From a virus: a stretch of 64,000 bases of DNA. The notes under the pieces are model-generated. The model was not told the origin of the DNA. It was given only the letters and a program-made list of their open reading frames with translations, and did not search any database. Shown here piece after piece: positions 25,106 through 51,327 of the stretch; positions within the stretch are counted from its first letter, which is position 1, and each line of letters begins with the position of its first letter. The position numbers and the translations under genes are program-made. The stretch is taken from IMG/VR virus record IMGVR_UViG_3300044632_001398, positions 1 to 64,000 of that record; one strand, 5' to 3'.

Positions 25106-25106
25106 T

Positions 25107-26849: not shown

Positions 26850-27469
26850 TTTCCTGTTCCGTAGTGCGGCCACTCTTTTTTATAATTATACCAAATAACA
26901 TCATTAGGAACATCTCTTTTTACACCATTCCAAGTTTCCTCTGTGGGAGTGTTTGTTGACACACCATTATCCTCAACAATGAATCTTATTGGTAAATCGT
27001 AACGTTTTGCATATTTGTGCATTTCATAGAAACCACCGGTTTCAAATGCCATATCACCAATGAAACACCATACTTTATCATTGTTACCATCTCTTTTATT
27101 TGCCATTGCCACACCTGTGGCGATAGGTATGATGGCCCCTACAATTGCTGAAGCGTAAAATCTATTTTCTTTATTAACTAAAGTAATTGACCTACCCTCT
27201 AATATTTCTTGTTCCACCCATTCAGACGGCACACCGTGTAGTAGTGCATGATAATGAGATCTCCAAGTTGAAAATACCCAATCTGTTGGTTTAATATATT
27301 TGAATATATCAATTAATTCGTCCTCATTTCCACCACTCAAGTGAATTGGACCTCTTACTTTACCGACTTCCCAATGGTCAGCCATTTTTCTTTCAAATTG
27401 AATTAATCCGGCTTTATCCCATAATGGATTATTCACAATTGGTAATTCATCTACTAAATTTTTTATCAT
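26834..27469 (-). CDS. ThDP enzyme alpha subunit (PDH-E1alpha-like, shortened)
   Basis: HLSGGNE, STWRSHYHAL, GDMA...EDN ThDP-binding motif. Confidence 0.85.
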   Translation of the reverse strand: MIKNLVDELPIVNNPLWDKAGLIQFERKMADHWEVGKVRGPIHLSGGNEDELIDIFKYIKPTDWVFSTWRSHYHALLHGVPSEWVEQEILEGRSITLVNKENRFYASAIVGAIIPIATGVAMANKRDGNNDKVWCFIGDMAFETGGFYEMHKYAKRYDLPIRFIVEDNGVSTNTPTEETWNGVKRDVPNDVIWYNYKKEWPHYGTGKWVIF

Positions 27470-30323: not shown

Positions 30324-31462
30324 AAGTAGGATTTATAGGTATTGGGAAATTAGGTAAGGATGCCGCGGAAGTGATGCATGAAGCGGGTCACGATGTTTTA
30401 GGTTATGACACTAGAACAATTCATGATTGTAAGTTTGAAATGACTTGGTCAATAGAAGACGTGTGTAAACACGGAGAGATTATTTTTATTGCGGTACCAA
30501 CACCACATCATCCTGAGTATGACGGTAGTCAACCAACATCACATTTAGAACCAAAAGATTTTGATTATTCAATTGTTAAAAACGTATTGGAAGAAATTAA
30601 TCAATACACTACTAAAGAACAATTGGTTGTTTTAATATCAACAGTTTTACCTGGTACAACAAGAAGAGAATTTATTCCTTTAGTTAAAAATTATCGTTTC
30701 ATATATAATCCTTATCTTATTGCAATGGGAACAGTTAAGGAAGATATGATTAGACCCGAAATGATTATAATTGGTACTGAAGATGGAACCACAACGGGTG
30801 ATGCGGATAAACTGACTGAATTTTATGGAACATTTGTTTATCCAAAAACAAGATGTGAAATTGGAACTTGGGATGATGCTGAAGCAATCAAAATATTCTA
30901 CAATACATTTATCTCAACGAAAATATCATTAGTCAATATGATTATGGACGTGGCTGAGAAAAATGGTAATATGAATACTGACGTTGTCACAGGTGCATTA
31001 GAAAGAAGTACATATAGAATATTAGGTCCCGCATATATGAAAGCAGGTATGGGAGATGGAGGAGGGTGTCACCCAAGAGATAATATTGCCTTGAGATATA
31101 TGGCCAAAGAATATGATTTAGGTTACGATTTGTTTGATGCAATAATGAAATCTAGAGAACTACAGGCAAAAAATATAGCAAAGAAGTTGATTGAATTACA
31201 TAATGAAAGTAAGTTACCAATTGTTATTTTAGGTGAAAGTTATAAACCAGGTGTACCATATGTAGATGGTTCATATTCTAAATTAATAGCTCACTATTTG
31301 GATTATCCTTGGTTATATTATGATAAAATTGTTGAACCTGCAGTATACCTATTAGGACATCGTGGTGTTTATAACGAAACTGTATTTCCTGAAGGTAGTG
31401 TGGTTTTAGATCCTTGGAGAGAACGAAATAAACCAGATACAATTTATTATGGTGGAAAATAA
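30320..31462 (+). CDS. ugd: UDP-glucose/GDP-mannose 6-dehydrogenase family
   Basis: GIGKLG, IAVPTP, STVLPGTT, AEAIKIFYN, GGGCHPRD. Confidence 0.85.
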   Translation: MKVGFIGIGKLGKDAAEVMHEAGHDVLGYDTRTIHDCKFEMTWSIEDVCKHGEIIFIAVPTPHHPEYDGSQPTSHLEPKDFDYSIVKNVLEEINQYTTKEQLVVLISTVLPGTTRREFIPLVKNYRFIYNPYLIAMGTVKEDMIRPEMIIIGTEDGTTTGDADKLTEFYGTFVYPKTRCEIGTWDDAEAIKIFYNTFISTKISLVNMIMDVAEKNGNMNTDVVTGALERSTYRILGPAYMKAGMGDGGGCHPRDNIALRYMAKEYDLGYDLFDAIMKSRELQAKNIAKKLIELHNESKLPIVILGESYKPGVPYVDGSYSKLIAHYLDYPWLYYDKIVEPAVYLLGHRGVYNETVFPEGSVVLDPWRERNKPDTIYYGGK

Positions 31463-32606
31463 GTTTACATATATATCTGATGAAATTCATGACGAATTTG
31501 AAAAAATTTTAGATAGGATTAAATATAAATGGGATATTGAATATAACAAGATTGATTTTGAATTTAAGTATAATAAAAAAGTATATTATGTAATAGAACA
31601 ATCTTTTATTATTTCTAATGAAATTAATAAAATTGAAAAAATTAAAAACAGATTGTTAAATGATGACAATTTTAATTTATTGATATATTCGGCGCACGAA
31701 TCATTAGATAGTACAAAATTAATTTTTTTAAAAAATCTATTTAATGAATATAAGTTCAATGAGAAAAAAATACACTTAGTGAATAATGGTTCTAATTTAA
31801 ATGAACTGCAAATTAAATATAATACCAATTTTAATATATATAGATTGAACATATTATCAAATAATAAGATAGGTGATATGATACATTCTACCGATAGCTT
31901 TTTTAAAAAAAATAAATTAGGTAAATTTTTTATGACATTTAATAAAGAAGATAAAACACATCGTTATGGTTTGTTAATACTTCTGAAAAAATATAATTTA
32001 TTAGAACAAACAAATTGGTCATTCTTACCAACTAATAAAGGGTTAATAAATACGGATAGGTTAAAAAAAATAATGAATGAAGATTTAGTCACCACACTTT
32101 CAAATGAAATTGAATATTTTAAAAATTTAGAATATAAATTTAGTGATTACGAACCTGAGATAGAATTTAATAGAGGAGTAGTTATAGAATTGACTATGAA
32201 TGAGAATATAAAAAATTATGAAAATAGTTATGTAAATTTGACAACCGAATCTGTTTTTGATGAAGGGGGTGAATTAATACACATAACAGAAAAGTCTTAT
32301 AAACCATTTTACTATTATCAGTTTCCATTAATTATGGCAAGTAAAAACCATATAAAAAAAATGAAGGAATTATATGACTTGGACTTTTTTGAGGACATGA
32401 TTGATTATTCATATGATAATGTCATTAACAATGAAGAAAGATTTAAATTATATTTTAAGGAAATCTTAAGAATTAATGATAATAAACAAATGTTCATTGA
32501 ATTCTATAATAATAATCAATATAGGTTTGAACAAAATAAACAAAAAGTAATAAATATTATGGATTTATTATTCAACGACTATCAATACTTCACAAATTTA
32601 ATATAA
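31449..32606 (+). CDS. GT10-like putative glycosyltransferase (member 4)
   Basis: FMTFNK..KTHR, YVNLTTES, ITEKSYKPFYYYQFP. Confidence 0.55.
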   Translation: MVENKFTYISDEIHDEFEKILDRIKYKWDIEYNKIDFEFKYNKKVYYVIEQSFIISNEINKIEKIKNRLLNDDNFNLLIYSAHESLDSTKLIFLKNLFNEYKFNEKKIHLVNNGSNLNELQIKYNTNFNIYRLNILSNNKIGDMIHSTDSFFKKNKLGKFFMTFNKEDKTHRYGLLILLKKYNLLEQTNWSFLPTNKGLINTDRLKKIMNEDLVTTLSNEIEYFKNLEYKFSDYEPEIEFNRGVVIELTMNENIKNYENSYVNLTTESVFDEGGELIHITEKSYKPFYYYQFPLIMASKNHIKKMKELYDLDFFEDMIDYSYDNVINNEERFKLYFKEILRINDNKQMFIEFYNNNQYRFEQNKQKVINIMDLLFNDYQYFTNLI

Positions 32607-33904
32607 TGCAAAAAGTTTTTAATTTAGTATACGACAGGTGGGATGACGAAAGCGGAATACCATACCCAAACTTAAAATTGAATTTCCCAACTTTACATAT
32701 GAACGACCCCGATAATTTAATCTTACATTATATGGATGACACTTCATTTACTGATAAGTTTAAAAAAAAGAAATGTAAACTTGGTGAAGTTATAGATAAC
32801 ATTAATCAAAATTACTATTTCATAATCAGTCACGGAGGTGTAAATGCACATGAAATGTTTATTGACGAAAGAGATATTCATAATGTTAAAATATTAGACC
32901 CTTTAGACTTCCACATAAAAGATTTTCTTAAAAAATATGACAATTTTTATGTTATATTTTTAACAGAACATGAACCTGACAATGAAAAAAGTTTTAGACT
33001 TATTAACAAATATATGATTGATAATGGAATTGATACAAAAAAAATATATATAGTCAACAATAATTCTAAGTTAGAAGAATATAAAGAAAAATATAATAGT
33101 GAAATTAATGTATACAAATTAAATTTTATTCCTCATTCATCAACTAAAGTTTTAGATAAAATGGGAGGATGTGATTTTGTTGATAATAAAAAAGGTAAAT
33201 TTTTTATGTGTTTTAATAAATCACCAAAAGTACACAGATACGCATTTTTATGTATGATAAAAAAGGAGGGACTATTAGAAGAAATTAATTGGTCATTGGT
33301 ACCTGGCTGGGACTGTAGTCCAAAAGATGATTTTTATACTAAGATATTCACATATGATGATAAAAAATATTACAACGATGAAATTGAGTATTTTTTTAAA
33401 TTAAAATTTAAAAGAAGTGAATATGAAGAAGATAAAGGTTGGTTTAATCAATTTAACGAAATTAATACTGAGGGGTTCCCAATTTGGCTTCACAACCCCG
33501 AATTAATGGAAAACTATGAAAGTTCATATGTAAACATAATAACAGAATCTATGTTTTTAGATGAGAATAATAATGTACATATTTCCGAAAAATCATTTAA
33601 ACCTCTATTTTATTATCAATTTCCATTAATATTATCATCTTTTGGACACATAAAAAAAATGAAGGAATTACATGGATTTGATTTCTTTGATGACATAGTG
33701 GACCATAGTTATGACAATGAACCTAATCAAAGAAAAAGACTTGATATGTTTGTAAATGAAATTAAACGACTAAACAATATGAAGGATGAACTCATTTATT
33801 TTTATAAAAATAATAAAATAAGATTTCAAGAAAATAAAAATAAAGTAATTGATATATTAAAAATAGTTGATGAAGATTATAAATTTTTTGATAGTTTAAT
33901 ATGA
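32606..33904 (+). CDS. GT10-like putative glycosyltransferase (member 5)
   Basis: FMCFNKSPKVHR, YVNIITES, ISEKSFKPLFYYQFP. Confidence 0.55.
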   Translation: MQKVFNLVYDRWDDESGIPYPNLKLNFPTLHMNDPDNLILHYMDDTSFTDKFKKKKCKLGEVIDNINQNYYFIISHGGVNAHEMFIDERDIHNVKILDPLDFHIKDFLKKYDNFYVIFLTEHEPDNEKSFRLINKYMIDNGIDTKKIYIVNNNSKLEEYKEKYNSEINVYKLNFIPHSSTKVLDKMGGCDFVDNKKGKFFMCFNKSPKVHRYAFLCMIKKEGLLEEINWSLVPGWDCSPKDDFYTKIFTYDDKKYYNDEIEYFFKLKFKRSEYEEDKGWFNQFNEINTEGFPIWLHNPELMENYESSYVNIITESMFLDENNNVHISEKSFKPLFYYQFPLILSSFGHIKKMKELHGFDFFDDIVDHSYDNEPNQRKRLDMFVNEIKRLNNMKDELIYFYKNNKIRFQENKNKVIDILKIVDEDYKFFDSLI

Positions 33905-39850: not shown

Positions 39851-40288
39851 ATGATATATTGGTTAACAGGACAACCTGCGGCAGGTAAAACAACATTGGC
39901 AACTTGGATTCAATCAAGTTTCCCTAATAAGTCTATAATTGTGGATGGTGATGATATTAGAGAGATATTCGTAAATAAAGACTATTCAGAGGAAGGAAGG
40001 AAGAAAAACATTGAAAAGGCTCAGATTTTGGCTAAGTTCCTTCATCATAAGGGTTATATTGTTATAGTATCGTTAGTTTCACCATACAGAGATCAAAGGG
40101 AAGAGTTTAAAAACGAAATGGGGGAAAACCTAAGGGAAATCTATGTACATACCACCCAAGATAGAGGACGTAATCATTTTCACGTTGAGGGGTATGAACC
40201 ACCTTTGGAAAACTATTTTGACTGCGACACTACCGATAGTAGTGAATATCACACATTTTTAGAATTAAGAAGAAAATTAAATATATAA
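39851..40288 (+). CDS. cysC: Adenylyl-sulfate (APS) kinase
   Basis: WLTGQPAAGKTT, DGDDIR, SLVSPYR, YEPP. Confidence 0.9.
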   Translation: MIYWLTGQPAAGKTTLATWIQSSFPNKSIIVDGDDIREIFVNKDYSEEGRKKNIEKAQILAKFLHHKGYIVIVSLVSPYRDQREEFKNEMGENLREIYVHTTQDRGRNHFHVEGYEPPLENYFDCDTTDSSEYHTFLELRRKLNI

Positions 40289-40291
40289 TAT

Positions 40292-40654
40292 ATGAGTAAG
40301 AAATATGCGATGTATGTGGGTCGTTGGCAAAATTGGCATAAGGGTCACGAATGGTTAATTAACCAACAATTAGAAAAGGGTAAAGATGTGTGGGTAGCAA
40401 TTAGAAATGTTCCAACTGATGAAAATAACCCTAAAACTGCTCAAGAAGTGATGATGGAATTAGCGGGAGAACCGTTTTTTATGGAAAATTCACATAGAAT
40501 TAACATATCTATTATACCGGACATTGAAAGTATAAATTATGGTCGTGGAGTGGGTTATGATGTTATTTATCATGAACCACCACCTGAGGTAGAAGTAATA
40601 AGTGGAACTAAAATCCGTAATGGGGAAATGAATTCAGATGGTAGTAGAGCGTAA
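40292..40654 (+). CDS. HxGH nucleotidyltransferase (possible minimal ATP sulfurylase)
   Basis: GRWQNWHKGH and ISGTKIR; adjacent to cysC. Confidence 0.7.
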   Translation: MSKKYAMYVGRWQNWHKGHEWLINQQLEKGKDVWVAIRNVPTDENNPKTAQEVMMELAGEPFFMENSHRINISIIPDIESINYGRGVGYDVIYHEPPPEVEVISGTKIRNGEMNSDGSRA

Positions 40655-40853
40655 ACGACATATAGCTAAAACCATTTCATATCGTATTGTAAGTACCCTA
40701 ATTGGGTTCATTATAATGTGGTGGGTAAGTGGATCGATTAAGGTTGGGGCGGCATTTGGGGTAGCGGAATTGATATATAAACCCATTCAATACTATCTAC
40801 ACGAAAGAATTTGGTATAAATGGATAAAATTTGGACTAAAAGATAAAAAATAA
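40638..40853 (+). CDS. DUF2061-like small membrane protein
   Basis: RHIAKTISYR...YYLHERIW. Confidence 0.8.
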   Translation: MVVERKRHIAKTISYRIVSTLIGFIIMWWVSGSIKVGAAFGVAELIYKPIQYYLHERIWYKWIKFGLKDKK

Positions 40854-40880: not shown

Positions 40881-42329
40881 ATGAAATCAGTATTAATTGC
40901 AAGTGATTTAATCAAAGATTTAAATGGTAATATAAAAGTAATTGAAACGAACACAAACGCGTCAGTATCTATAAATTGGAATTTATATGATTTTGCAAAT
41001 TTGCAAGATTTTATCCAATCTAATAATTTTACAGAAGTTAATGGTATCGTTCCTCAAGTGGATAAACCATTTTCGGCTAAAATAAAAGAAATATGTGATT
41101 CAATTGGGATAACCTACGTTGAACATATAACAGTTAATGGTTCGATAACCGTTCCATTTATTGAAGATAATGAATCTACATTAATTATTAGACTTTCATA
41201 TGACACCACTGCAGTAGTGGACGACCAATATTGTAGAGACAAATTTGCATTACAAAAAGTAATTCACAATGAATCATTTGGTGTAAAAACATATATTCCG
41301 GTAGAAGTGGATGGAGTTACAATAGATGATTTTACCGAAATGGAAGACTTTGTTTATACTAACGACATACCAAATTTTATTGTAAAAAGTAGATATCCAA
41401 ATTATGATAAAGAAGTATATCCAAAGTTATACAAAGTAGAAAATTTAACACAATTAAATGAATTAAAATCTACAATTGAATCGGATTATTATTTACAAGA
41501 ATTTATTCAATCGGAATTAATAGATGGTAGAAGAAACATTATTAGAAGTTTAGATTTATTATATGGTTCTAATTTGGATACATTAAATATAGGTGGTTAT
41601 ACTGTTTTAAACCAAATTGAAGAAACAATATGGAATAATACATGGGATGAGAATAATATGTTGGCCAAAAAAGATAGGCCAAAATATATAACACATACGG
41701 CAGGACATGACGATTCTTCACATGAATATGTTTATGATGTTGATCAGGATGTTGCAATGATGGATGGTAGTAGAAAAACATTTTATTCATTAATATTAGG
41801 TGATTCAATTAAATCATTACACATTCAAGGATTGGACTTAGATGAAAGTACATATCAATTACAATCATGGACTGGTACTTATTCGGATTTTATTGAAAAT
41901 TTCAGTATTATATCCTCAGCTGTTGTTGCTACCAGAGAATCTCAACCCGTATCTCAATTATTTATTAAAATAACAATGGATGATGGAACTGAGTGGGATG
42001 ATGTAAAACTTTCACCATTATTGGTTAAGGATGGTGATGTTATTAAATTTAAAAGAGTAAATGATATGGCTATTGGTGATGTTATTATCACATATAATTT
42101 TGAATCATCGGAAGTAGAATTAAAAACCATTCAAAATATGGAAATTATATTTAAAGAAAACCAAATATTGGGTTCTTTAGATGTTGAACCGGTGGATTTG
42201 TATCTACCTTTTGTATCTGCAAATTCAACAGTAATTCAACACAATCGATGCACCAAGGGATGTGCAAGTAATGCCTGTTTCGATTCTTTTGCATGTGGTA
42301 ATTGTAGTTTTTACGTTTGTAATAAATAA
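40881..42329 (+). CDS. Circularly permuted ATP-grasp + Hint domain + C-terminal six-Cys peptide (putative self-processing precursor)
   Basis: N-terminal SDL..D.NGNIKVIETNTN (D..ExN), RDKF, FIVKSRYP, YLQEFI; Hint VAMMDGSRK...LILGDSI, V.DMAIGD, LDVEP...IQHN; then RCTKGCASNACFDSFACGNCSFYVCNK. Confidence 0.75.
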   Translation: MKSVLIASDLIKDLNGNIKVIETNTNASVSINWNLYDFANLQDFIQSNNFTEVNGIVPQVDKPFSAKIKEICDSIGITYVEHITVNGSITVPFIEDNESTLIIRLSYDTTAVVDDQYCRDKFALQKVIHNESFGVKTYIPVEVDGVTIDDFTEMEDFVYTNDIPNFIVKSRYPNYDKEVYPKLYKVENLTQLNELKSTIESDYYLQEFIQSELIDGRRNIIRSLDLLYGSNLDTLNIGGYTVLNQIEETIWNNTWDENNMLAKKDRPKYITHTAGHDDSSHEYVYDVDQDVAMMDGSRKTFYSLILGDSIKSLHIQGLDLDESTYQLQSWTGTYSDFIENFSIISSAVVATRESQPVSQLFIKITMDDGTEWDDVKLSPLLVKDGDVIKFKRVNDMAIGDVIITYNFESSEVELKTIQNMEIIFKENQILGSLDVEPVDLYLPFVSANSTVIQHNRCTKGCASNACFDSFACGNCSFYVCNK

Positions 42330-42351
42330 AAAATAATTAAAAATAAAAAAT

Positions 42352-42465
42352 ATGGCACTTTTAGATAAAGAACAAATAGAATTAACAGTTGCAACAAAAT
42401 TGCAAATTTCATCAGTTATTACAAGTATGGTAACTCTTATTAAGAGTGATATATTAAGTTCATAA
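42352..42465 (+). CDS. 37-aa amphipathic peptide
   Basis: Unlisted ORF MALLDKEQIELTVATKLQISSVITSMVTLIKSDILSS with A-rich upstream region. Confidence 0.55.
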   Translation: MALLDKEQIELTVATKLQISSVITSMVTLIKSDILSS

Positions 42466-42469
42466 AATA

Positions 42470-42501
42470 TTTGGTAAAACCAATTATTTTTAATATATTC
42501 G
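42470..42501 (+). promoter_or_regulatory. Class II promoter TTTG-N20-TATATTCG
   Basis: Close to the Bacteroidota TAnnTTTG consensus; 4 nt before ATG 42506. Confidence 0.65.
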
Positions 42502-42505
42502 TTAT

Positions 42506-42805
42506 ATGCCAATAGACGTAAAAGAAATTACCAAAGCTTGGATAGATTCTTACTTTGGAACAATCGAACAAAAAAACAGAGCAAACGATAGAAATGAAAT
42601 CTGTCAACAATGCCCATCTTTAAAAGAATTTTTTAAACAACGCAAAAACATTTCCGTTCAACAATGTGGTGAATGTGGGTGTCCTATTTCTAAAAAAATA
42701 TGGTCATATAAATTTAATCCTTGCCCATTAGGTAAATGGGAAGATGTTGATAAAAAACACAAAAATCTATTTGATACTGAATTGAAAACTAAAAATACGA
42801 TTTAA
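42506..42805 (+). CDS. Cys-rich Zn-binding protein (DUF6171-like)
   Basis: R.EICQQCP...CGECGCP...CPLGKW. Confidence 0.75.
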   Translation: MPIDVKEITKAWIDSYFGTIEQKNRANDRNEICQQCPSLKEFFKQRKNISVQQCGECGCPISKKIWSYKFNPCPLGKWEDVDKKHKNLFDTELKTKNTI

Positions 42806-43171
42806 ATGAATGTTATAAATACAAACCCAAAACTATATATTAAATACATCGATAATATAAAGGGATTTGGTGTTTTTACTAATCAAAAAATTAAAAAGGG
42901 TGAATTAATTGAACAATGTTATTCCCTTTGTATTGATACTACGGTTAAAGGGTTTGATGCATATTGGTTTAGGTATAGAGGAGATAGTACATTGTTACCA
43001 CTTGGATTTGGTACGATTTATAATCATAGTAATACTCCAAATACTATATGGAAAATTATTGATGAAAACAAAAGAATTATAAACTTTTATGCAATTGATG
43101 ATATTGATATAGATTGTGAACTTTGTCATAATTACGGACCAGGGTATTTAAAACATATCCAATTAATATGA
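42806..43171 (+). CDS. SET-domain methyltransferase
   Basis: KGFGVF...IKKGELI, YNHS.TPN, A..DI....EL.HNYG. Confidence 0.85.
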   Translation: MNVINTNPKLYIKYIDNIKGFGVFTNQKIKKGELIEQCYSLCIDTTVKGFDAYWFRYRGDSTLLPLGFGTIYNHSNTPNTIWKIIDENKRIINFYAIDDIDIDCELCHNYGPGYLKHIQLI

Positions 43172-43701
43172 TTTATCAAAAAAAAATATTTTCTAAAGAG
43201 GAATGTGATATAATATTACAATTATCTGACACATTGGAATTTAGAGATGGAAAAACTAGATATAGTAAAGATAATATGCATGCCGACTTTGATGAATACT
43301 GGGTTTCGGATAATGAAAATGCTATATGGTTTATGGATAGAATAAAAGTGTTTGCCGAAAAAGAATTAAAAGTAAAATTAAAAAAGTTAAAATCCGATGT
43401 TGCAATTCTAAAATATAAAGAAGGACAGGGTATTGATATGCATATAGATTATAATCCCAAAAATGTGGATGTTAGAATGTATACTGTTGGTGTAATGCTG
43501 AATACCGAATGGGAAGGAGGTGAATTTTTTATAAAGGATGTATCTAATGGAGAAGAAACGATGCTAATCAAAGAAATAGGAAATACATATATTTTTGATG
43601 CATTTTCTCCTCATATAGTTAATAAAGTAACAAAGGGAGTAAGATGTGTATTGATTACTCATATATTAAATTCAGAAATTAAAAAAACAGATTTAATATG
43701 A
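43168..43701 (+). CDS. 2OG-Fe(II) oxygenase (prolyl-hydroxylase-like)
   Basis: FSKEEC, HID, EGGEF, HIV.KVTKGVR. Confidence 0.85.
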   Translation: MIYQKKIFSKEECDIILQLSDTLEFRDGKTRYSKDNMHADFDEYWVSDNENAIWFMDRIKVFAEKELKVKLKKLKSDVAILKYKEGQGIDMHIDYNPKNVDVRMYTVGVMLNTEWEGGEFFIKDVSNGEETMLIKEIGNTYIFDAFSPHIVNKVTKGVRCVLITHILNSEIKKTDLI

Positions 43702-44285
43702 TTTATCAAGAAAAAATATTTTCTAAAGAGGAATGTGAAAGAATATTATCATATACCAACATATATACTGATTTAGTGTTTAGAAGTAAAGAACCAAATA
43801 TTGATTTTGAAAAAAGAAGGGTAGAGCATATTACAAAACACACTAATGGTAAAAATATCGGAAAATTTTTTAATGTTTGGGATATTCGTCATGATGAAGA
43901 AACACATTGGATGTTTGAAAAAATAATAAAATGGTTTTCTAATGTTTCAAAAATAGAACACAATTCAGATGGGTGGCCTGGCGGTTGTTCATTACATAAA
44001 TACTCAAAGGGGGACTCATTTCAAAAACATATAGATTTAAATCAATCTTTCCCAGATAGAAGATGGAATTTAGGTATTCAATTAAACGACTCATATACTG
44101 GTGGTGAATATATATGTTATGATAATAACGATAATAAGATAATATTAAGTAAAGAAATTGGAACAGCAATAGCTTATAATTCTACAACTGAACATGAAAT
44201 AACGGAAATATTATCTGGTGAAAGGTGGTCTATTGTAATGCCAATAAGTAATAAAGTAATTTTAGAAAAAAAATCAATAATATGA
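43698..44285 (+). CDS. 2OG-Fe(II) oxygenase (prolyl-hydroxylase-like)
   Basis: FSKEEC, HID, YTGGE, HEITEILSGER. Confidence 0.85.
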   Translation: MIYQEKIFSKEECERILSYTNIYTDLVFRSKEPNIDFEKRRVEHITKHTNGKNIGKFFNVWDIRHDEETHWMFEKIIKWFSNVSKIEHNSDGWPGGCSLHKYSKGDSFQKHIDLNQSFPDRRWNLGIQLNDSYTGGEYICYDNNDNKIILSKEIGTAIAYNSTTEHEITEILSGERWSIVMPISNKVILEKKSII

Positions 44286-44905
44286 TTTTAGAAAAAATAG
44301 AAATAGATAAAAATATTATTGTATATAAAGGAATAGTTGGTTTATTTGAATCCTTTAATAGAGAAGAATTTATTAAAAAAATAAAATATATTCAACATTT
44401 ATATCCGGATTTTACTAATTCTATGAATGAAAAATCACCTGGTAAACAATATCCAATTTTAGTAAATTTAGAAGAGACTAATTTTATTATTAATAAAGTA
44501 AAAACATCATTAAAAAATGAAATAAATACTCCAAGTGAATGTGTTATAAACAGTTGGGTTTATGTTAGTAGTAATAAAAATAAATATTCAGGATATCATT
44601 CACATGAAAGTACAGGAGTACATCAAAATAATAAAACCGTTATGTTTGATACATCACACACATTCACATATTATGTTCAAATGCCAAATAATTTAAAAAA
44701 TGATGATGGATATTTATACTTTAAAACAAAAGATGGTACGGAATTTGGATTTTTACCAAAAGAAGATGAGGTTTGGATATTCCCAGGAGATTTAGAACAT
44801 GATGTTAAAACCAATACATCATCTACAAATGAAAGAATTGTAATTGCAAGTAATATGCATTTTTTTGATTATAATGATATTAAATTAGAAAAAAGTATAT
44901 TATAA
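44282..44905 (+). CDS. Putative 2OG-Fe(II) oxygenase (HxH type)
   Basis: SWVY, HSH, TYYVQMP, IFPGDLEH.V, RIVIA. Confidence 0.75.
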   Translation: MILEKIEIDKNIIVYKGIVGLFESFNREEFIKKIKYIQHLYPDFTNSMNEKSPGKQYPILVNLEETNFIINKVKTSLKNEINTPSECVINSWVYVSSNKNKYSGYHSHESTGVHQNNKTVMFDTSHTFTYYVQMPNNLKNDDGYLYFKTKDGTEFGFLPKEDEVWIFPGDLEHDVKTNTSSTNERIVIASNMHFFDYNDIKLEKSIL

Positions 44906-45624
44906 TGTCTATTTTAATAAATAATAACTTAATATGGGTATCTATACCAAGAAATGCAAGTCATTCTATTGAAAAGGCTATTGTAAATTCGGATGTAGAG
45001 ATAAAACATTGGAATAGATTGTATACAACAGAAAGTATTTTTAATAGAAATTGGTTGCATCAACATGTAAATAAAAACCAATTACAAATTGCATTTGGTA
45101 ATAAAGAAACGTTTTGTATAAAAAGAGATTTCAGTAATAGATGGATATCTTCACTGGAACACTTTTGGGATGTGTGTATTAAACACCACAAATTAACTCC
45201 TATTATTAACTATGAAGACATAGATAATGATTTTATATACAATACTTTTAATACTACATTCAGTAATATTTTATATAATGATAATACGGGATTAATAAAA
45301 TGTACATCAATGTTAGTAAAACAATCTATGGAAGATGTATTAAATAATAATACTAGGTATGAGACTCAAAGACTTTCACACATTTTTGCATCACAAAATA
45401 AATATTTAGATGGGGAAAAATGTACATATGAATTTGACATAAAAGAATTGGATAAATTTAAAACATTTTATGAAAATAGATATGATGTAAAAATAGATAT
45501 ACCTCATGAAAATGTATCACCAAAAAAAATAAATAAAATAATATTAGATGATGATTTAAAAAATCATTTATGGGAAGTGTTTGAAAAACCATTTGCAAAA
45601 GATAAAAAATATAATTTATTATAA
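44905..45624 (+). CDS. Sulfotransferase (Sulfotransfer_2-like)
   Basis: WVSIPRNASHSI (5'-PSB) and RD..NRWISS (3'-PB) motifs. Confidence 0.7.
   Translation: MSILINNNLIWVSIPRNASHSIEKAIVNSDVEIKHWNRLYTTESIFNRNWLHQHVNKNQLQIAFGNKETFCIKRDFSNRWISSLEHFWDVCIKHHKLTPIINYEDIDNDFIYNTFNTTFSNILYNDNTGLIKCTSMLVKQSMEDVLNNNTRYETQRLSHIFASQNKYLDGEKCTYEFDIKELDKFKTFYENRYDVKIDIPHENVSPKKINKIILDDDLKNHLWEVFEKPFAKDKKYNLL
45551..45612 (+). repeat. Copy 1 of a ~62-bp direct repeat (copy 2 at 46869-46931)
   Basis: atgatt(t)taaaaaatcatttatgggaagt[g/a]tttgaaaaaccatttgcaaaagataaaaaatat. Confidence 0.9.
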
Positions 45625-45653
45625 TACCCCCACCAACAACACAACTAAAATAA

Positions 45654-46226
45654 ATGTTATTTAATAATTTTTACAAAACAACCTACGATTTTAATTGGGA
45701 AGTATTAGAACCCATTTTAGAAAAAATGGTCAGTATAAAAAATCAAGACTATTTAGAAAAGGGTGATGTATTAACTTCTTTTAAAAATAAAATAAGTCCA
45801 TTAAATTTACCTGAACTTAAAGACTTTTATAGTTTTATATCACCAATTTATAGTGATGTATTAATTAATAAATGGAACTATCCAAAAGAAAATGAATATT
45901 TTATTAGTAATTCTTGGGTATCAAAATATGGAAATGGTGGTTTTATTGAAGAACACAATCATACCAACGTAATTGCAGTAATATGTGCATATTTACAAAT
46001 TCCTGAAAATTCATCAAATATTTTATTTAGAGATCCAAATTATGATACAAAAATAAAATTATCAACAAAGGATGATAATTGGTTATGGAAAGAAATAGAA
46101 TCCAAAACAAACGAAATACTTATATTTGAAGGTGGGTGTTATCATAAAACTAATCCAAATAATAGTTTAATTCCTCGTTGGGTATTAACTACAAATATAA
46201 CAAAAAAAAATAAAAGTATAATATGA
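45654..46226 (+). CDS. Putative 2OG-Fe(II) oxygenase (HxH type)
   Basis: SWVSKY, HNH, F.DP, LIFEG..YH.T.PN, RWVL. Confidence 0.75.
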   Translation: MLFNNFYKTTYDFNWEVLEPILEKMVSIKNQDYLEKGDVLTSFKNKISPLNLPELKDFYSFISPIYSDVLINKWNYPKENEYFISNSWVSKYGNGGFIEEHNHTNVIAVICAYLQIPENSSNILFRDPNYDTKIKLSTKDDNWLWKEIESKTNEILIFEGGCYHKTNPNNSLIPRWVLTTNITKKNKSII

Positions 46227-46248
46227 AATTAAACAAAATAAACACACT

Positions 46249-46872
46249 ATGAAAGGGAATGAACAAATAGAGGTTTTTGAAGAAAAAATTGAAATTCAAA
46301 ATACAAAAAACGATGGTAACAATGTCATTATGCACATTGGTGAAAAATATTTAATGACTAAACTTGCAGAAATTGTTACAAAAAACGGAGGTGACATATT
46401 AGAAATTGGATTTGGAATGCATTTATCTGCCGATGCTATACAATCAAATCCAAATGTGACATCACATACCATAATAGAAATTCATCCGGTTCAATATGAA
46501 AGAGCATTAGAATGGGCAAAGTTACAAAAAATAAAAACAACAGTTATATTAGGTGATTGGATTGAATTATTACCATTGACTAATATGAAGTTTGATGGAG
46601 TATTACATGATACACATTTAGACCCGAATATACCTAAATTTTTAGATTATATAGTAGATAATTGTAAAAAAGGTACAATTGTGGGTTTTTTTGAATATCA
46701 AAAATTTGATTTAAGATTTAATGGATATAGAGTTACTATACCAAAAGAAGACTGGGAAACTATTCCATATAAAAATAACATATATTACAAAGATAATCAG
46801 CCTGAATTAAAATATACTACATTTAATGGTGATGATTTTTATAGTGAAAAAAAAATAAATAAACTATTATGA
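46249..46872 (+). CDS. Class I SAM methyltransferase (GAMT/Rmt2-like)
   Basis: GGDILEIGFGM, HTIIEIHP, GDW, FDGVLHDT. Confidence 0.8.
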   Translation: MKGNEQIEVFEEKIEIQNTKNDGNNVIMHIGEKYLMTKLAEIVTKNGGDILEIGFGMHLSADAIQSNPNVTSHTIIEIHPVQYERALEWAKLQKIKTTVILGDWIELLPLTNMKFDGVLHDTHLDPNIPKFLDYIVDNCKKGTIVGFFEYQKFDLRFNGYRVTIPKEDWETIPYKNNIYYKDNQPELKYTTFNGDDFYSEKKINKLL

Positions 46873-46940
46873 TTTTAAAAAATCATTTATGGGAAGTATT
46901 TGAAAAACCATTTGCAAAAGATAAAAAATATTTAATTTAA
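46869..46940 (+). pseudogene. 23-codon relic duplicating the 3' end of the sulfotransferase gene
   Basis: MILKNHLWEVFEKPFAKDKKYLI*, ATGA-coupled to the upstream stop. Confidence 0.7.
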
Positions 46941-46941
46941 A

Positions 46942-47508
46942 ATGGTAATCACTATTATCGCAGAACCAAGAACTGGGTCAACTAATTTAGGTAAATGGTT
47001 TCTGAACAATAAAGAATTCACAGTATTATTTGAACCATTAAATAAAACTAGTACAAATTATAAAAAAGGTGAATCAGTTTATCAATGGAAATATAATACT
47101 AATCATTTTTTAATTAAGGAAATATATACACCAGATATATGTTTAACAGAATTGATACAATTTTCAGATAAAATCATAATACTTTATAGAGAAAATAAAA
47201 AAGAACAATTGGAATCTTGGTTAGTTGCCAGAGAAACCAATAATTGGCATGTAAAATGGAGTCATAATATGACAAGTGTGACAAATGGTAAAGAAAAAAT
47301 AAAATATTTTAATTCACTAACAAATACATTCAAATTAAATTATATAAATAATCCTAATTATTTTAAAATTTCATATGAAGAATTATATTATAGTAATGGA
47401 TTTCAAAAAATAATAGATTATATAAATTTAGATTGTGTAAAAAATGAAAATTTTCCACAAGGTCAAAAATATAGAATATATGATAGTAAAACAACAAGTA
47501 TTATTTAG
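46942..47508 (+). CDS. Sulfotransferase (Stf0-like)
   Basis: AEPRTGSTNL, LFEP, LYREN..EQLESW, ISYEEL. Confidence 0.75.
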   Translation: MVITIIAEPRTGSTNLGKWFLNNKEFTVLFEPLNKTSTNYKKGESVYQWKYNTNHFLIKEIYTPDICLTELIQFSDKIIILYRENKKEQLESWLVARETNNWHVKWSHNMTSVTNGKEKIKYFNSLTNTFKLNYINNPNYFKISYEELYYSNGFQKIIDYINLDCVKNENFPQGQKYRIYDSKTTSII

Positions 47509-47977
47509 TAAAGAAGAATGTGAATTGATTATAACTCTACCAAAAACAAATCAACAATATTGGGAATCAAAGGATAGAAGTTATAATTCACTTGTACTGC
47601 AGTATAACGAAAATACAGAGTGGATATTTAATAGATTGAAAAATTTTTTTGAATTAGAAACGGAAATAAAGATTTTTAAATTAAAACCATACATACATTT
47701 TCATAAATATGTAAGTGGGGATTGGTTTGGTAGACATAACGATATTAGAGGTGACAGAATTTCTGCAGTGGGTGTGTTACTGAATGATGATTTTAATGGT
47801 GGAGATTTCAAATTATACAATCCAACAGAAGTGATTTTAAATAAAGTGGTTGGAAACACATACATATTTGATGTTACAATTGACCACGAAATAACACCAA
47901 TTTTAAATGGTGAGAGATATTCATTACTTTGGTTTTTAGAAAGAGACAATATTAAATTTAATAATAAATTGATATAA
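47480..47977 (+). CDS. 2OG-Fe(II) oxygenase (prolyl-hydroxylase-like)
   Basis: FSKEEC, HND, FNGGDF, HEITPILNGER; start revised to MIVKQ. Confidence 0.85.
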   Translation: MIVKQQVLFSKEECELIITLPKTNQQYWESKDRSYNSLVLQYNENTEWIFNRLKNFFELETEIKIFKLKPYIHFHKYVSGDWFGRHNDIRGDRISAVGVLLNDDFNGGDFKLYNPTEVILNKVVGNTYIFDVTIDHEITPILNGERYSLLWFLERDNIKFNNKLI

Positions 47978-48597: not shown

Positions 48598-51327
48598 ATG
48601 AAAATCTTAGCACACACTTGTTTTATTGGAACCACCGGATACGCAAATCATGCACGTTCCTTTTTTACTGCACTTAATAAACATCACACTGTAAAGGTTA
48701 GGAATTTAACTATTGGTAATGGTTGGAAAGGTATGAATGATACTCCACACGATGATGAACCATATATTACTGGTGAGATGAAGGACATGTTAATTCAACA
48801 AACCCTTAATAATCAAGATGGTACGAGAACTGATTTCAATATGTATGGATATAAAGGTGATTTTACACCCGATGTTCATATTGTTTTAATGGAGACCAAT
48901 AATTATTATTTCTATGACAATTATGAAGGGTACAAGATAGCGTATAACGTTTGGGAATCAACACGTTATCCAGAAGATTTCTTTAGAAGATTATTTTATT
49001 TTGATGAAGTATGGGTACCAACTCAATGGCAATTTGATTGTTTAGTTGAACAAGGATACCCATCAGAAAAGATTTTTATTGTACCTGAAGGTGTTGATGT
49101 TGAAACATTTAAACCAATTAAAAAATCACTTAAAAAATCTACCACTAAATTTAGATTTTTATATTTTGGTAGATGGGATTATAGAAAGGGAACTACCGAG
49201 GTGTTAAAGACTTTTGGTGAAACTTTTAAGGATAGAACCGATGTTGAATTAATTGCGTCGGTTGAAAACCCATATCCATATGATGGACTCAAGAGTACGG
49301 AAGAAAGAGTTAAAACATATGGAATTGATGATACTAATATCAAGTTCATTAAATTCACATCAAGAGAAGATTATGTGAAATATTTACAAATGGGTGATGT
49401 ATTCATATCATGTGCTCGTAGTGAAGGATGGAATCTACCATTAATTGAGGCGATGTCATGTGGAACACCATCAATATATTCTAATTGGGGAGGACAACTA
49501 CAATTTGCAAAAGATAAAGGTATACCCGTTAAAATATCTCATTTAAGACCTGCCAACATAGAACATAAAGAATGGCCAGGTGAATATTGTGAACCAGATT
49601 GGAAAGATTTAGGTGAACAAATGTTAGATGCTGTTAAAAACTACTCAGAATATAAATCAAAATCAATAAAAGACTCAAAAGAAATTCACAAGAATTTTAA
49701 TTGGGACACAGTTGCAAAAGGGGCGTCAGATATATTAACAAGACATTCCAAACCGTTTGCATTTGTTACTACAGGTAATATGGGATATATGCCTGTGATT
49801 GAGAAATTAGTACAATCGCTATTAGAATTTTCAGAACAAAAGATAATTGTTTATGGAGTTGATTGTGAAGTTCCATTTGATTATCCAAATGTTATCAAAA
49901 GAACCATAAATCCATCAAAAATATCTGAACACGATAAATGGTATTGGAAACAATATGCTTGTTTAGAATCATTAAAAGAAGGATTTGAATACCTTATATG
50001 GATTGACGGAGATGTTGTGGTAAATCATAATATAGATACTGTAAGAAAATATTTTAAACAAGTTGGAAGATATCCATTATCCGATATTCACGTTCAAGAA
50101 GAGTTCTTTGGGATGTATGATAATGGAACTAAATCACAATTGTTTAATGAAGAACTTGCAAAGAAATGGGGTATTGAAAAAAGACAACCATATATGCACG
50201 TTTGTTTCTTCATTTACAATAATGGGTCAGAAGCATTCTTTGATAGTATTTTACACACTTACAAAACATTAATGGTAGAAGAGCCAGAAAACTATAAGAA
50301 ATATTTCTTATGGAATGATGAAGGTATTGATAATGCAATTAGGTGGAAAAATGGATATACAAATCACTTACCACTATCAAACTTTGATACATCATCGTAT
50401 GATGGTGATGAAGGGTTTATTGATAAGACATTACATCAATTTTATAAGTTTTGGAATGAAGAAGGACCACAAAATTTTGATAGAATATTTGGTTATCAAT
50501 ATATTCCTAAAGATAAATCTGATATAATCTATTTTCATGGAAATAAAAATGCTGAGATATCTGATAAGATGATTCAGTTTATTAAGATGCAAAGAGATAA
50601 TTCATTTTATAAATCAATGTGTTTTTATACGGATGTTTATAAATTAGAAAATTTTGAATCTCTATTTGAATATGAAGGTGGAACAATCGATGTAGCAAAC
50701 AAGTTTGGTTGGGCAACTGCAATATTCCACGAGATTTTTAACTTAAGAGATTACTACCACAATAGAATTAAAAGAATACATGAAGGAGATATTGTAGTTG
50801 ATTTAGGTGGAAATATGGGGATATTCAATAGATGGGCATATAGTCAAGGTGCTAAGCGAGTAATTTCTTTTGAACCTGACAAAAGATACTTTAAATTGTT
50901 ATCATTAAATACGGACCCACGTTCTTTATTGTTTAATGGTGCAGTTAGTAATCAAGTAGGTGAATTAGAATTACATGAAAGTTCTCATTTAGGTGGATCT
51001 AATGTTTTTGGAACACAGGAAAATGCGAAGAAATATAAGGTAAGAACATACACTTTAGATTATCTATTTGAGTGTGGTTTAATTGAACATATTGATTTTC
51101 TAAAAGTTGATATTGAGGGTGCTGAACATTTAGCATTTGGTGGAATTTCTGATGAGAATTTAATGAAAGTTAAAAACATCGCAATGGAGTATCACCATGG
51201 ACATTTTAATTACGATGAGGAACTTAGAAATAATTTCATCACTAAGATGAATAGTTTAGGATTTAATTCTTACTTGGTGTTTATGGGAAATAATAATGAA
51301 TTACAGATGATTTACTTCTGGAGATAA
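48598..51327 (+). CDS. Trifunctional GT4 + GT-A + FkbM methyltransferase
   Basis: GRWDYRKG, EGWNLPLIEAMSCG; WIDGD, WNDE, FHGNK; VDLGGNMG, FEP, KVDIEGAE, EYH. Confidence 0.85.
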   Translation: MKILAHTCFIGTTGYANHARSFFTALNKHHTVKVRNLTIGNGWKGMNDTPHDDEPYITGEMKDMLIQQTLNNQDGTRTDFNMYGYKGDFTPDVHIVLMETNNYYFYDNYEGYKIAYNVWESTRYPEDFFRRLFYFDEVWVPTQWQFDCLVEQGYPSEKIFIVPEGVDVETFKPIKKSLKKSTTKFRFLYFGRWDYRKGTTEVLKTFGETFKDRTDVELIASVENPYPYDGLKSTEERVKTYGIDDTNIKFIKFTSREDYVKYLQMGDVFISCARSEGWNLPLIEAMSCGTPSIYSNWGGQLQFAKDKGIPVKISHLRPANIEHKEWPGEYCEPDWKDLGEQMLDAVKNYSEYKSKSIKDSKEIHKNFNWDTVAKGASDILTRHSKPFAFVTTGNMGYMPVIEKLVQSLLEFSEQKIIVYGVDCEVPFDYPNVIKRTINPSKISEHDKWYWKQYACLESLKEGFEYLIWIDGDVVVNHNIDTVRKYFKQVGRYPLSDIHVQEEFFGMYDNGTKSQLFNEELAKKWGIEKRQPYMHVCFFIYNNGSEAFFDSILHTYKTLMVEEPENYKKYFLWNDEGIDNAIRWKNGYTNHLPLSNFDTSSYDGDEGFIDKTLHQFYKFWNEEGPQNFDRIFGYQYIPKDKSDIIYFHGNKNAEISDKMIQFIKMQRDNSFYKSMCFYTDVYKLENFESLFEYEGGTIDVANKFGWATAIFHEIFNLRDYYHNRIKRIHEGDIVVDLGGNMGIFNRWAYSQGAKRVISFEPDKRYFKLLSLNTDPRSLLFNGAVSNQVGELELHESSHLGGSNVFGTQENAKKYKVRTYTLDYLFECGLIEHIDFLKVDIEGAEHLAFGGISDENLMKVKNIAMEYHHGHFNYDEELRNNFITKMNSLGFNSYLVFMGNNNELQMIYFWR

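Follow-up and report, generated by a model that had tools for sequence, protein, structure and literature searches.

An ATP-grasp/Hint fusion with a cysteine-rich tail in a large freshwater phage: a candidate self-processing carrier protein

A large uncultured phage from lake water carries a gene in which an ATP-grasp domain, a Hint domain and a Cys-rich tail are joined in one protein of 482 aa (P0001), here named AGH. The gene is the ORF at 40881-42329 on the plus strand of the window, that is, of the whole stretch of 64,000 nucleotides that was analysed. The fusion is an undescribed and strongly conserved enzyme architecture, even if the cleavage discussed below does not occur, and a literature search found no paper on an ATP-grasp/Hint/Cys-peptide fusion. 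Structure prediction and the comparison of homologues show, as far as models go, an ATP-grasp rigidly joined to a Hint domain and followed by a polymorphic cargo, which here has 27 aa and six Cys. They likewise show a predicted Hint domain that is devoid of everything used in N-terminal thioester chemistry, yet has the His-Asn pair for C-terminal cleavage. AGH is best explained as a carrier protein of large freshwater phages that processes itself, and the chances seem about even that Asn cyclisation frees the peptide and that the ligase and the neighbouring enzymes act on it.

If the cleavage is real, AGH would be a large, virus-only family by which a phage makes a small, fast-diversifying, cystine-rich peptide out of a precursor equipped with both protease and ligase. 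The uses of Hint domains would extend to a C-terminal release coupled to ATP-grasp chemistry, genetically encoded peptide natural products would gain a new logic, and the dioxygenase, halogenase and sulfotransferase arrays of large aquatic phages, which lack an explanation so far, would find a defined substrate. The ligase-Hint pair could also become a self-contained tool for peptide release and ligation.

Architecture of the protein

The initial annotation was made from the letters alone, and the ORF, its coordinates and every motif that it quoted were found in the sequence: D9..E22-x-N24, RDK, FIVKSRYP, YLQEFI, YVYDVDQDVAMMDG, LILGD, MAIGD, LDVEP and IQHN, with the 27-aa tail RCTKGC...VCNK located at 42246-42326. 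The AlphaFold (AF2) model, obtained with 106 homologues, has a pLDDT of 90.1 and a pTM of 0.85, and consists of three parts: the ATP-grasp (aa 1-273), the Hint (aa 280-455) and an unmodelled six-Cys tail (aa 456-482). Both folds are high-confidence predictions. Four observations had been named beforehand as able to overturn the proposal, and three were looked for, namely a lack of these folds in the prediction, homologues devoid of His-Asn, and a tail conserved as an integral Zn finger; the idea survives all three.

The ATP-grasp domain (40881-41699, plus strand) was delimited by structure alignment of the AF2 model. Residues 1 to about 270 had been read as ATP-grasp, and aa 1-273 indeed match YgiC, GspS and the eukaryotic glutathione synthetases with Z 8.7-10.1: YgiC 7uka with Z 10.1 (199 aligned residues, rmsd 4.1; VIA-align), GspS 2io7 with Z 9.8 (VIA-align), and the glutathione synthetases (5oeu, 3kaj, 2wyo group) with Z 8.7-9.4. 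The fungal Cp1B (9cjn) follows with Z 8.4, and RimK-type folds reach Z 5.5 at most. Foldseek matched 7uk8 (E 5e-6), and an Atlas search with aa 1-278 returned generic ATP-grasp leads. Sequence searches of Pfam, PHROGs and PDB with P0001 alone gave no match; the GSP_synth HMM (PF03738), which detected the E. coli control, found none on P0001 at E up to 10 and nothing in the viral record.

The D..ExN element does lie at the N-terminus, where it had been taken for a circular permutation; as a novelty this falls, because the arrangement is the known GspS/YgiC/glutathione-synthetase topology minus the N-terminal pre-domain (the first residue of the model pairs with residue 94 of YgiC). As for the earlier link to graspetides, the ligase is of the peptide-polyamine/glutathione-synthetase type and not of the graspetide type. 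An hhalign comparison of the AGH alignment with YgiC, used solely for the register of the ExN motif, sets AGH 8-26 on the D..ExN (D..ENN) segment at YgiC 101-119, although weakly (E 0.017, probability 2.7%).

The catalytic residues are well kept: E22, N24, R104, D114 and R222 are invariant among 106 AGH sequences, D9, E22, N24, K169 and R222 are invariant or nearly so in the AGH alignments, and the E..N motif is retained in 226/226 homologues. There is also a conserved acidic motif, YDTTAxxDDxYxxDK. Judging from the model, the domain is apparently an amide ligase of the GspS/YgiC type, predicted to be active. AGH shares with GspS, YgiC/YjfC, eukaryotic glutathione synthetase and Cp1B the topology and the D..ExN Mg/ATP motif near the domain N-terminus, and presumably the amide-forming chemistry through an acyl phosphate. 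Identity to them is about 10-15%, AGH is without their N-terminal pre-domain, and they have neither a fused Hint nor a peptide of their own, whereas AGH combines both. YgiC and YjfC act as peptide-spermidine ligases according to Pederick 2023 (cited in PMC12568646).

The Hint domain (41718-42245, plus strand), assigned from the AF2 model and from profiles, is without the position-1 nucleophile and the block-B TxxH, and ends in Gln-His-Asn. The fold had been called from short motifs, and the call proved sound: aa 280-455 align to inteins, BIL2 and the hedgehog Hint with Z 15.5-16.2 and rmsd 2.0-2.2 Å over 139-143 residues. The NpuDnaB intein (4o1r) gives Z 16.2 and rmsd 2.0 Å with 139 of its 142 residues aligned, BIL2 gives Z 16.1 and the hedgehog Hint Z 15.5, and all these matches stop at model residue 455, which is the His454-Asn455 end. 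The AGH family profile matches the KlbA intein (E 2.9e-6) and BIL2 (E 2e-3); none of the Pfam Hint models, including the PT-HINT HMM (PF07591), reaches E = 10 on P0001.

The Val at position 1, the lost TxxH and the non-nucleophilic +1 residue were seen again in two family alignments. Position 1 (residue 284) is V, I, T, Q or H across homologues, V375 and S378 stand where KlbA has the T and H of block B, and the +1 residue after His-Asn varies (R, L, A, P, G, T, Q and others), being Pro in many homologues. With no N-terminal nucleophile, no block-B TxxH and a variable +1, this domain is left with the C-terminal reaction only. His-Asn was counted in 241 homologues, 235 with cargo and 6 without. 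Among those with cargo it is retained in 231/235, and the Asn in 235/235, versus only 3/6 of the cargo-less ones (Fisher p 3e-4, not corrected for phylogeny); the pair is held across about 25% sequence identity. As for block F, position F:13 is usually His, which aids Asn cyclisation in many inteins, and is Asp439 in AGH.

The tail (aa 456-482; 42246-42326, plus strand), which is the putative released peptide, has a pLDDT below 50 in the AF2 model, hence no confident structure. Contigs from RNA libraries of three lake metatranscriptome studies are identical to 41507-42639. They cover only parts of the gene, with no meaning attached to the gaps, and give no depth, strand or transcript ends, and they lend weak support to expression because DNA carry-over is possible.

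The AGH family and its cargo

One search returned 252 AGH homologues, nearly all aligned from residue 1 and about 480 aa long. The family comprises at least 269 representative clusters at 50% identity and at least 186 IMG/VR stretches, and its gene was seen in viral records only. A pattern scan with the AGH alignment across about 185,000 prokaryote genomes, by which distant relatives could be missed, found no relative, and tblastn with AGH and with a neighbouring 2OG oxygenase against cultured-phage records gave no match.

What follows His-Asn is most often a Cys tail. Some homologues add a second self-cutting domain (Hint or S74) behind the Cys tail, others have direct tandem Hints, and others again a large BACON-bearing protein with extensions of 700-1,240 aa; tail length spans 21 to over 1,200 aa. 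P0105 and P0113 have a true Hint starting Cys-Phe behind the Cys module, the extra Hints matching PF07591, and P0178 has a Peptidase S74 domain above the Pfam cut-off in this place; in these three proteins the Cys module is bracketed by two predicted autoprocessing sites. The S74 domain starts directly after a Lys in many S74 forms, and short tails mostly terminate in Lys or in Lys plus one residue. The initial proposal of ligase, protease and core peptide in one chain fits the parts of the window protein and fails for the family as a whole, and its labels of RiPP-like and toxin-like find no support. Because the cargo is not always a peptide, this one-chain arrangement is one member of a broader cargo-carrying family; and because some cargos are huge BACON proteins or tandem Hints, the term "peptide precursor" cannot cover all of it.

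A conserved ligase and Hint with a variable peptide behind His-Asn had been predicted, and this is the pattern that the comparison of 241 homologues displays. The Cys columns of the tail are conserved and the residues between them are hypervariable; only the Cys positions are kept, and the tail is probably no conserved, integral Zn finger. The Cys are kept within clades, their counts are 6, 8 and 10, their spacings vary, His is rare, and the Cys number is even in 183/185 tails. In 19/20 pairs the dN of the non-Cys tail codons exceeds that of the core, by about 1.5-10 times. Such variability points to a mature peptide that probably meets the host or a competitor. A pairing of the tryptophan halogenase with Trp in the tail was also considered. 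The two co-occur in "CWCPW" clades, with exceptions both ways (L003; L044, L058, L059), and the pairing was discounted because of these exceptions and because the signal follows phylogeny.

The genomic island

Immediately downstream of AGH lies a tiny ORF of 37 aa (MALLDKEQ...DILSS; 42352-42465, plus strand). It begins 1-51 nt past the AGH stop in all loci with enough downstream sequence, 79 with the window counted in. Its pooled pN/pS is 0.34 over 22 independent pairs, so that it evolves like the core and unlike the tail, and it is 87-92% identical where the tails are 50-68% identical, without co-diversification between the two.

The neighbour most tightly linked to AGH is sm99 (42506-42805, plus strand), a protein of 99 aa with six invariant Cys (C33, C36, C54, C57, C59, C73) and a C-terminal tag. 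It occurs in 71 of the 81 loci examined and adjoins AGH, upstream or downstream, in 52; the reverse search from sm99 found AGH adjoining in 66 of 75 new loci. Its Atlas clusters are virus-only and unnamed, with a weak DUF6171 lead. The AF2 model of sm99 has pLDDT 85, and its PDB fold search gave no match (best Z 3.4), which leaves the idea of a LysW-like amino-group carrier protein without support. A predicted complex of AGH with sm99 scored 0.19, below the mark, and was given no weight for or against an interaction.

Nine consecutive enzyme genes follow (42806-47977, plus strand; Pfam matches), coding for a SET-domain protein, five 2OG-Fe(II) oxygenases, two proteins of unknown family (239 and 188 aa) and a methyltransferase. 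All nine are tagged, ending in [K/N]-x-[S/T/N/K]-[L/I]-[I/L]. Members of these families accompany AGH in 50-79 of 80 loci, in a gene order that shuffles, and across loci AGH is surrounded by 2OG oxygenases, halogenases, radical-SAM enzymes and methyltransferases, many of which end in K-[S/T]-L-I. The tag is present on 76-94% of the members of these enzyme families and on 0% of AGH, the tiny ORF, DUF2061 and others. Both kinds of Ser codon, AGT and TCN, occur at -3, a sign of selection at the amino-acid level. Could the tag be a by-product of overlapping start codons? This is out, as the Ser codons are mixed and sm99 is tagged even though 46 nt separate it from the start of the following gene. 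A specific docking of enzymes onto AGH through the tag has become less likely, given that sugar-modifying enzymes far from AGH are tagged too; because these distant enzymes of the window share the tag, the island may serve a wider modification programme and not this peptide.

Upstream of AGH (39851-40853, plus strand; Pfam) there is a trio formed by an APS kinase (APS_kinase, E 8e-20), a 120-aa protein with an HxGH motif and a DUF2061 membrane protein (E 1.6e-15). Its members are present in 22-35 of 80 loci. The trio stands in the same order directly upstream of AGH in L044/45, L067, L076 and L077, and in L002 two more ORFs separate this trio from AGH. In the window, the island is bordered by tail-fibre genes.

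Self-release, its alternatives and known systems

In the self-releasing carrier, Asn455 would cyclise to a succinimide and cut the Asn455-Arg456 bond, freeing a peptide with a new alpha-amine. The six Cys would form three disulfides, or bind metal, and yield a compact, fast-evolving mini-protein. The ATP-grasp would form one amide bond on this peptide or with it, using the unmasked N-terminal amine or the C-terminal Lys carboxylate, with the tiny downstream protein and sm99 as accessory subunits of the conserved core, and with the surrounding oxygenases, halogenases, radical-SAM enzymes and methyl- and sulfo-transferases tailoring the product. Engineered inteins can cleave without a +1 nucleophile. 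The same holds for type A BILs, which end in a C-terminal His-Asn, have no +1 nucleophile and cleave by Asn cyclisation (review PMC4031507).

In support of release, at the level of structure prediction and sequence comparison, are the two predicted folds; catalytic motifs that appear to be under selection, as the retention of ExN and the different fates of His-Asn with and without cargo suggest; the polymorphic cargo behind a constant core, with its faster dN and even Cys counts; the putative second self-cleaving domain beyond the Cys module in several clades; the Lys that precedes S74 in many forms and ends most short tails; and the conserved, virus-only island with the tiny ORF, sm99 and probable tailoring enzymes. 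Against it count the Asp at F:13 where His is usual, the Pro at +1 of many homologues, an unusual leaving group, and the predicted tail without confident structure. The ligase type, moreover, is to our knowledge unlike every ATP-grasp that acts on ribosomal peptides.

Another reading, which we consider unlikely, takes the fusion for a new kind of ATP-driven, single-turnover protein ligase, whose purpose would not be to set a peptide free. Here the Hint would bare the alpha-amine of the cargo near the ATP-grasp site, which would join it to an activated carboxylate, with an acyl phosphate in place of the thioester of type A BIL ligation. This carboxylate could come from a small acid, from the C-terminal end of the tiny protein or of a protein tagged with K-[S/T]-L-I, or from an acidic side chain of a virion or host protein; with the cargo's own C-terminal Lys carboxylate as acceptor, the product could be a head-to-tail cyclic cystine peptide. 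Such peptide cyclisation or protein-protein ligation, if true, would be unlike sortases, asparaginyl ligases, ubiquitin-type systems and inteins. The closest structural relatives do activate a peptide C-terminal carboxylate and couple it to an amine, and type A BILs use an amine, liberated by Asn cyclisation, to attack an activated acyl group (PMC4031507). A ligase would also account for the stoichiometric fusion of enzyme and cargo, for cargos from 21 aa up to the 1,240-aa BACON extension and for the untagged, core-like-evolving tiny protein that is always next, and the acidic motif YDTTAxxDDxYxxDK could bind a cationic amine. However, +1 is often Pro, a poor nucleophile, and the C-terminal tag is not confined to AGH neighbours. 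It is equally doubtful that no cleavage occurs at all, the Hint being a structural relic and the Cys tail a metal-binding or disulfide module of an ordinary ATP-grasp that makes small-molecule amides. Degenerate, inactive Hint domains exist, the one of AGH has lost its nucleophile, block-B and F:13 residues, and the six Cys in conserved columns could form a binuclear metal site. Yet His-Asn persists at low identity and is relaxed in cargo-less proteins alone, several clades have extra self-cleaving domains beyond the tail, and neither hypervariable residues between the Cys nor such a range of tail lengths resembles an integral cofactor site; nor can the Cys numbers 6 and 10 be divided by four, and the tails contain few His.

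Two further readings keep the cargo as a functional module and appear quite improbable. One is an effector resembling polymorphic toxins, in which the Hint releases a knottin-like peptide and the tiny ORF is the immunity protein or antidote. The layout of a constant N-terminal part, a Hint and a polymorphic C-terminus is the expected one, a small gene is always immediately downstream, and relatives carry true PT-HINT domains. An antidote, however, should change with its toxin, and between L020 and L025 the core is 91%, the tail 50% and the tiny ORF 92% identical, with L005/L006 and L013/L014 similar. Furthermore, AGH has no secretion or trafficking domain, its Hint is not matched by the PT-HINT HMM, and its N-terminal enzyme has intact catalytic motifs that toxin carriers do not need. 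The other is a virion or adhesion component, whose surface binding module (Cys knot, S74 module or BACON) AGH would mature or attach, and this too is very unlikely. S74 chaperone domains are typical of tail fibres and spikes, BACON domains bind glycans, both are among the AGH cargos, tail-fibre genes are near, and hypervariability is typical of receptor-binding parts; but the AGH gene sits among enzymes rather than structural genes, and a family search matched AGH to no structural-protein family.

How does the self-releasing carrier compare with known systems? Class 1 inteins have the Hint fold and the C-terminal His-Asn in common with AGH, but they rely on Cys/Ser at position 1, on block-B TxxH and on Cys/Ser/Thr at +1, and restore a host protein by splicing; AGH has none of these and no extein pair. 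Closer are type A BILs and PT-HINT (PF07591), which lie, as the AGH Hint does, between a constant and a variable part, end in His-Asn without a +1 nucleophile, and have Asn cyclisation as the expected chemistry. They keep the position-1 Cys and block B and can form a thioester, unlike AGH, and their partner is a secreted repeat or trafficking protein instead of an enzyme. In the Tetrahymena BUBL loci a ubiquitin-like domain sits between two BIL domains (PDB 6tmm, 6y75). BIL2 is among the top structural matches, and P0105 and P0113 repeat the bracket, with an HN Hint upstream and a Cys-1 Hint downstream of the Cys module; the window protein, in contrast, is without the downstream Hint, has a Cys-rich peptide in place of the ubiquitin fold, and adds the ATP-grasp. 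Lastly, the AGH locus recalls those of graspetides/microviridins and ranthipeptides/SCIFF, where a short variable peptide is encoded next to ATP-grasp, radical-SAM, halogenase, oxygenase and methyltransferase genes. In AGH, however, the peptide is fused behind a 455-aa protein instead of a separate precursor with a leader, the ATP-grasp comes from another branch (GspS/GS, not RimK/microviridin type), and release would be autocatalytic rather than the work of a leader peptidase.

The fusion protein and its predicted folds

The gene that fuses an ATP-grasp domain, a Hint domain and a Cys-rich tail (AGH; 40881-42329, + strand) encodes 482 aa, and its confirmed translation contains all of the motifs quoted in the initial annotation. 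Single-sequence searches with this protein (P0001) against Pfam, PHROGs and PDB chains gave no match; consequently, the fold assignments needed structure-based testing. The AlphaFold2 model, built from an alignment of 106 homologues, has a mean pLDDT of 90.1 and a pTM of 0.85, with pLDDT below 50 only at residues 278-280 and in the tail (459-482). In structure alignments, residues 280-455 of the model match the NpuDnaB intein (Z 16.2, rmsd 2.0 Å, 139/142 residues), Tetrahymena BIL2 (Z 16.1), a Clostridium BIL (Z 15.7) and a hedgehog Hint (Z 15.5). The match stops at model residue 455, the counterpart of the last intein residue, and Foldseek is concordant. At the sequence level, the family profile matches the KlbA intein (E 2.9e-6) and BIL2 (E 2e-3), so that the predicted Hint fold is borne out by both routes.

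The N-terminal part (1-273) has its best structural match in E. coli YgiC (Z 10.1 over 199 residues), followed by glutathionylspermidine synthetase (Z 9.8), by glutathione and homoglutathione synthetases of eukaryotes (Z 8.7-9.4) and by Cp1B, a fungal ligase (Z 8.4), in agreement with the ATP-grasp fold proposed for it. Because its partners are enzymes of the YgiC/glutathione-synthetase type, the circular permutation also claimed holds when classical ATP-grasp enzymes serve as the reference, but as the known topology of the YgiC/GspS branch it is no novelty. The D..ExN element (residues 9, 22 and 24) pairs with YgiC segment 101-119 in a weak hhalign match. YgiC and YjfC are described as peptide-spermidine ligases (Pederick et al. 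2023, as cited in PMC12568646).

One search collected 252 homologues and another at least 269 representative clusters (50% identity); with few exceptions they begin at residue 1 and have a length of ∼480 aa. Across the 106 aligned sequences E22, N24, R104, D114 and R222 are invariant, and D9, T25, K169, H454, N455 and four Cys columns show conservation of 90% or more. Motifs were counted after aligning all collected proteins to the family HMM: ExN is present in 226/226, which points to strict selection on the ATP-grasp catalytic motifs. Among homologues with more than 10 residues beyond His-Asn, the pair occurs in 231/235, as had been anticipated, and its Asn in 235/235; the pair is kept in three of the six with almost no residues beyond (Fisher p 3e-4, indicative only, since the sequences are related).

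At position 1 of the Hint domain the family has V, I, T, Q or H; V375 and S378 stand where KlbA has its block-B Thr and His, and the +1 residue after His-Asn is variable, often Pro. The alignments thus confirm that the position-1 nucleophile and the block-B TxxH are absent. The domain has thus lost what the N-terminal acyl shift and splicing need, and retains the residues for Asn cyclisation (residue roles are reviewed in PMC4031507). Asp439 takes the place of the His that usually helps at block F:13.

The tail behind His-Asn

What follows His454-Asn455, a 27-aa tail in the window (42246-42326, + strand), is polymorphic across homologues. Most have a tail of 21-70 aa with conservation limited to Cys. 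Of the 185 tails with a length of 15-80 aa, 183 have an even number of Cys (136 with six, 38 with eight and 7 with ten), a pattern easier to reconcile with disulfide pairing than with zinc sites. In short tails Lys is mostly the last or the next-to-last residue. In some relatives a self-cleaving chaperone domain of the peptidase S74 type comes after the Cys tail (P0178 scores 25.3 bits, with the cut-off at 22, from profile position 1), and in many cases it begins directly behind a Lys; in P0105 and P0113 the Cys tail is followed by a true Hint with a Cys-Phe start and a His-Asn end. Hints stand in direct tandem in P0231, P0237, P0253 and P0258, and extensions of 700-1,240 aa that include BACON domains follow His-Asn in P0244 and P0262, and likewise in P0248 by alignment to both.

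Of 20 independent locus pairs from viruses, 19 show a higher dN on non-Cys tail codons than in the core (the protein up to Asn455), by ∼1.5-10 times; examples are L020/L025 (0.505 vs 0.049) and L013/L014 (0.327 vs 0.068). Tail dN/dS is 0.13-0.66 in the eight closest pairs, above the core in seven and at least twice the core in six. Since only the Cys are kept and tail dN is raised, the comparison indicates that the tail is a fast-evolving scaffold; a conserved Zn-finger is unlikely, as the residues between the Cys vary. The foreseen pattern, a hypervariable peptide behind conserved ATP-grasp and Hint parts, is therefore seen in homologues and in dN alike.

Immediately 3' of AGH lies an unannotated 37-aa ORF (42352-42465, + strand), whose product has no Cys and looks helical. 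A homologous ORF of 28-49 aa occurs 1-51 nt past the AGH stop in 79 loci including the window, that is, at every AGH locus with enough downstream sequence. Its pooled pN/pS of 0.34 indicates purifying selection, and its divergence tracks the core, not the tail (L020/L025 identity: 92% vs 50% for the tail).

A candidate self-processing carrier

What would such a protein do? The best-supported reading, drawn from sequence comparison and modelling, is a self-processing carrier: cyclisation of Asn455 would free the cargo, the ATP-grasp domain would form an amide bond on or with it, and neighbouring genes would assist or tailor. Prediction and comparison show the folds, the conserved motifs, the polymorphic cargo, the gene linkage and the restriction to viruses; from these, cleavage, disulfides, ligation, tailoring and a biological target are inferred. 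A mechanistically attractive variant concerns the ligation step. Type A BILs use a thioester, whereas here the ATP-grasp acyl phosphate would stand in its place, and the amine unmasked by the Hint would be the nucleophile.

There are three rival readings. The tail may stay uncleaved and be structural, a proposal against which the His-Asn counts of cargo-bearing and cargo-less proteins speak. The cargo may be a virion adhesion module; the viral record does carry tail-fibre genes. Or the protein may be a polymorphic-toxin-like effector, in keeping with so variable a cargo; however, the tiny ORF diverges like the core, which argues against a tail-specific immunity protein. As for precedents, full-text searches on an ATP-grasp, Hint and Cys-rich layout in phages, on BIL and C-terminal cleavage in phages, and on the nearest ligases, YgiC/YjfC and Cp1B, turned up no account of such an architecture. 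The parts are of known kinds; their combination, which would belong with Hint-released polymorphic cargo systems, is not.

The island and its shared C-terminus

The window comes from a 74.3-kb viral record from lake water, judged 22% complete. Among the genomes of 185,579 prokaryote species a pattern scan detected no AGH relative, and cultured-phage records yielded no homologue; by this comparison the family is restricted to viruses. At 80 IMG/VR loci AGH sits in a same-strand island of conserved membership and shuffled order, with two 2OG-Fe(II) oxygenase families, two unknown families (239 and 188 aa), radical-SAM enzymes, GDSL proteins, methyltransferases, a SET domain and, at 37 loci, Trp-halogenase homologues. 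Clades with a Trp-rich C-W-C-P-W...C tail also carry the halogenase homologue within 8 kb (L018, L021, L024, L026-L030, L035, L038-L042, L046-L050 and others), a co-occurrence that has exceptions and is confounded by phylogeny.

A virus-only family represented by a 99-aa protein, sm99 (42506-42805, + strand), is present in 71 AGH loci and directly adjoins AGH in 52. Its invariant residues are W12, R29, six Cys, K64, K77 and W78; its AF2 model (pLDDT 85) found no match among solved structures in fold searches. Relatives occur in at least 587 IMG/VR stretches, and a search started from sm99 placed AGH beside it in 66/75 further loci. Four loci from this search, with ample flanks, have no AGH, and the island is absent from the one inspected, L107. 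There sm99 (10001-10261) lies between gene families F16 and F17, without AGH, tailoring enzymes or the C-terminal motif described next, and looks like a remnant after island loss.

Island enzymes of unrelated folds share a C-terminal tag with the consensus K-[S/T]-L-I-COOH. Carriers include 2OG oxygenases (91-94%), sm99 (90%), radical-SAM enzymes (85%), two unknown families (76-84%), SET proteins, a methyltransferase and the halogenase; no AGH, tiny-ORF or DUF2061 protein carries it (0%), nor do several others, and structural genes lack it. Tagged genes in the window lie at 42806-47977, 17601-18887, 20817-21635, 23405-26873 and 29046-33904. Sugar-modifying enzymes at 17.6-33.9 kb bear the tag as well, so that it is not confined to genes next to AGH. 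The Ser at -3 is written with AGT in some cases and with TCN codons in others, and the tag stays where the next gene does not overlap, which argues for selection at the protein level. It could be a degron or docking signal; in its basic-hydrophobic character it would resemble C-terminal recognition signals, the MuA-type ClpX signal among them. Three tandem ORFs at 5529-7965 (232, 250 and 326 aa) have a similar C-terminal motif of their own (...QKTKFGL, ...QKTKYGL, ...QKQRFGL).

All of the sequence at 16-51 kb can be read as a single large modification island with tail-fibre-like genes on either side (1008-3644 and 53545-54768). A radical-SAM protein (16150-17601) and a 909-aa glycosyltransferase-methyltransferase fusion (48598-51327) flank the AGH region. 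In a related strain (run X23, 2025 lake metatranscriptome) 42805 is joined straight to 43168, and that strain therefore lacks the SET-domain gene; island content thus differs among close strains. Metatranscriptome contigs from three lake studies match 41507-42639 without differences, which lends weak support to transcription of the AGH region, DNA carry-over being possible.
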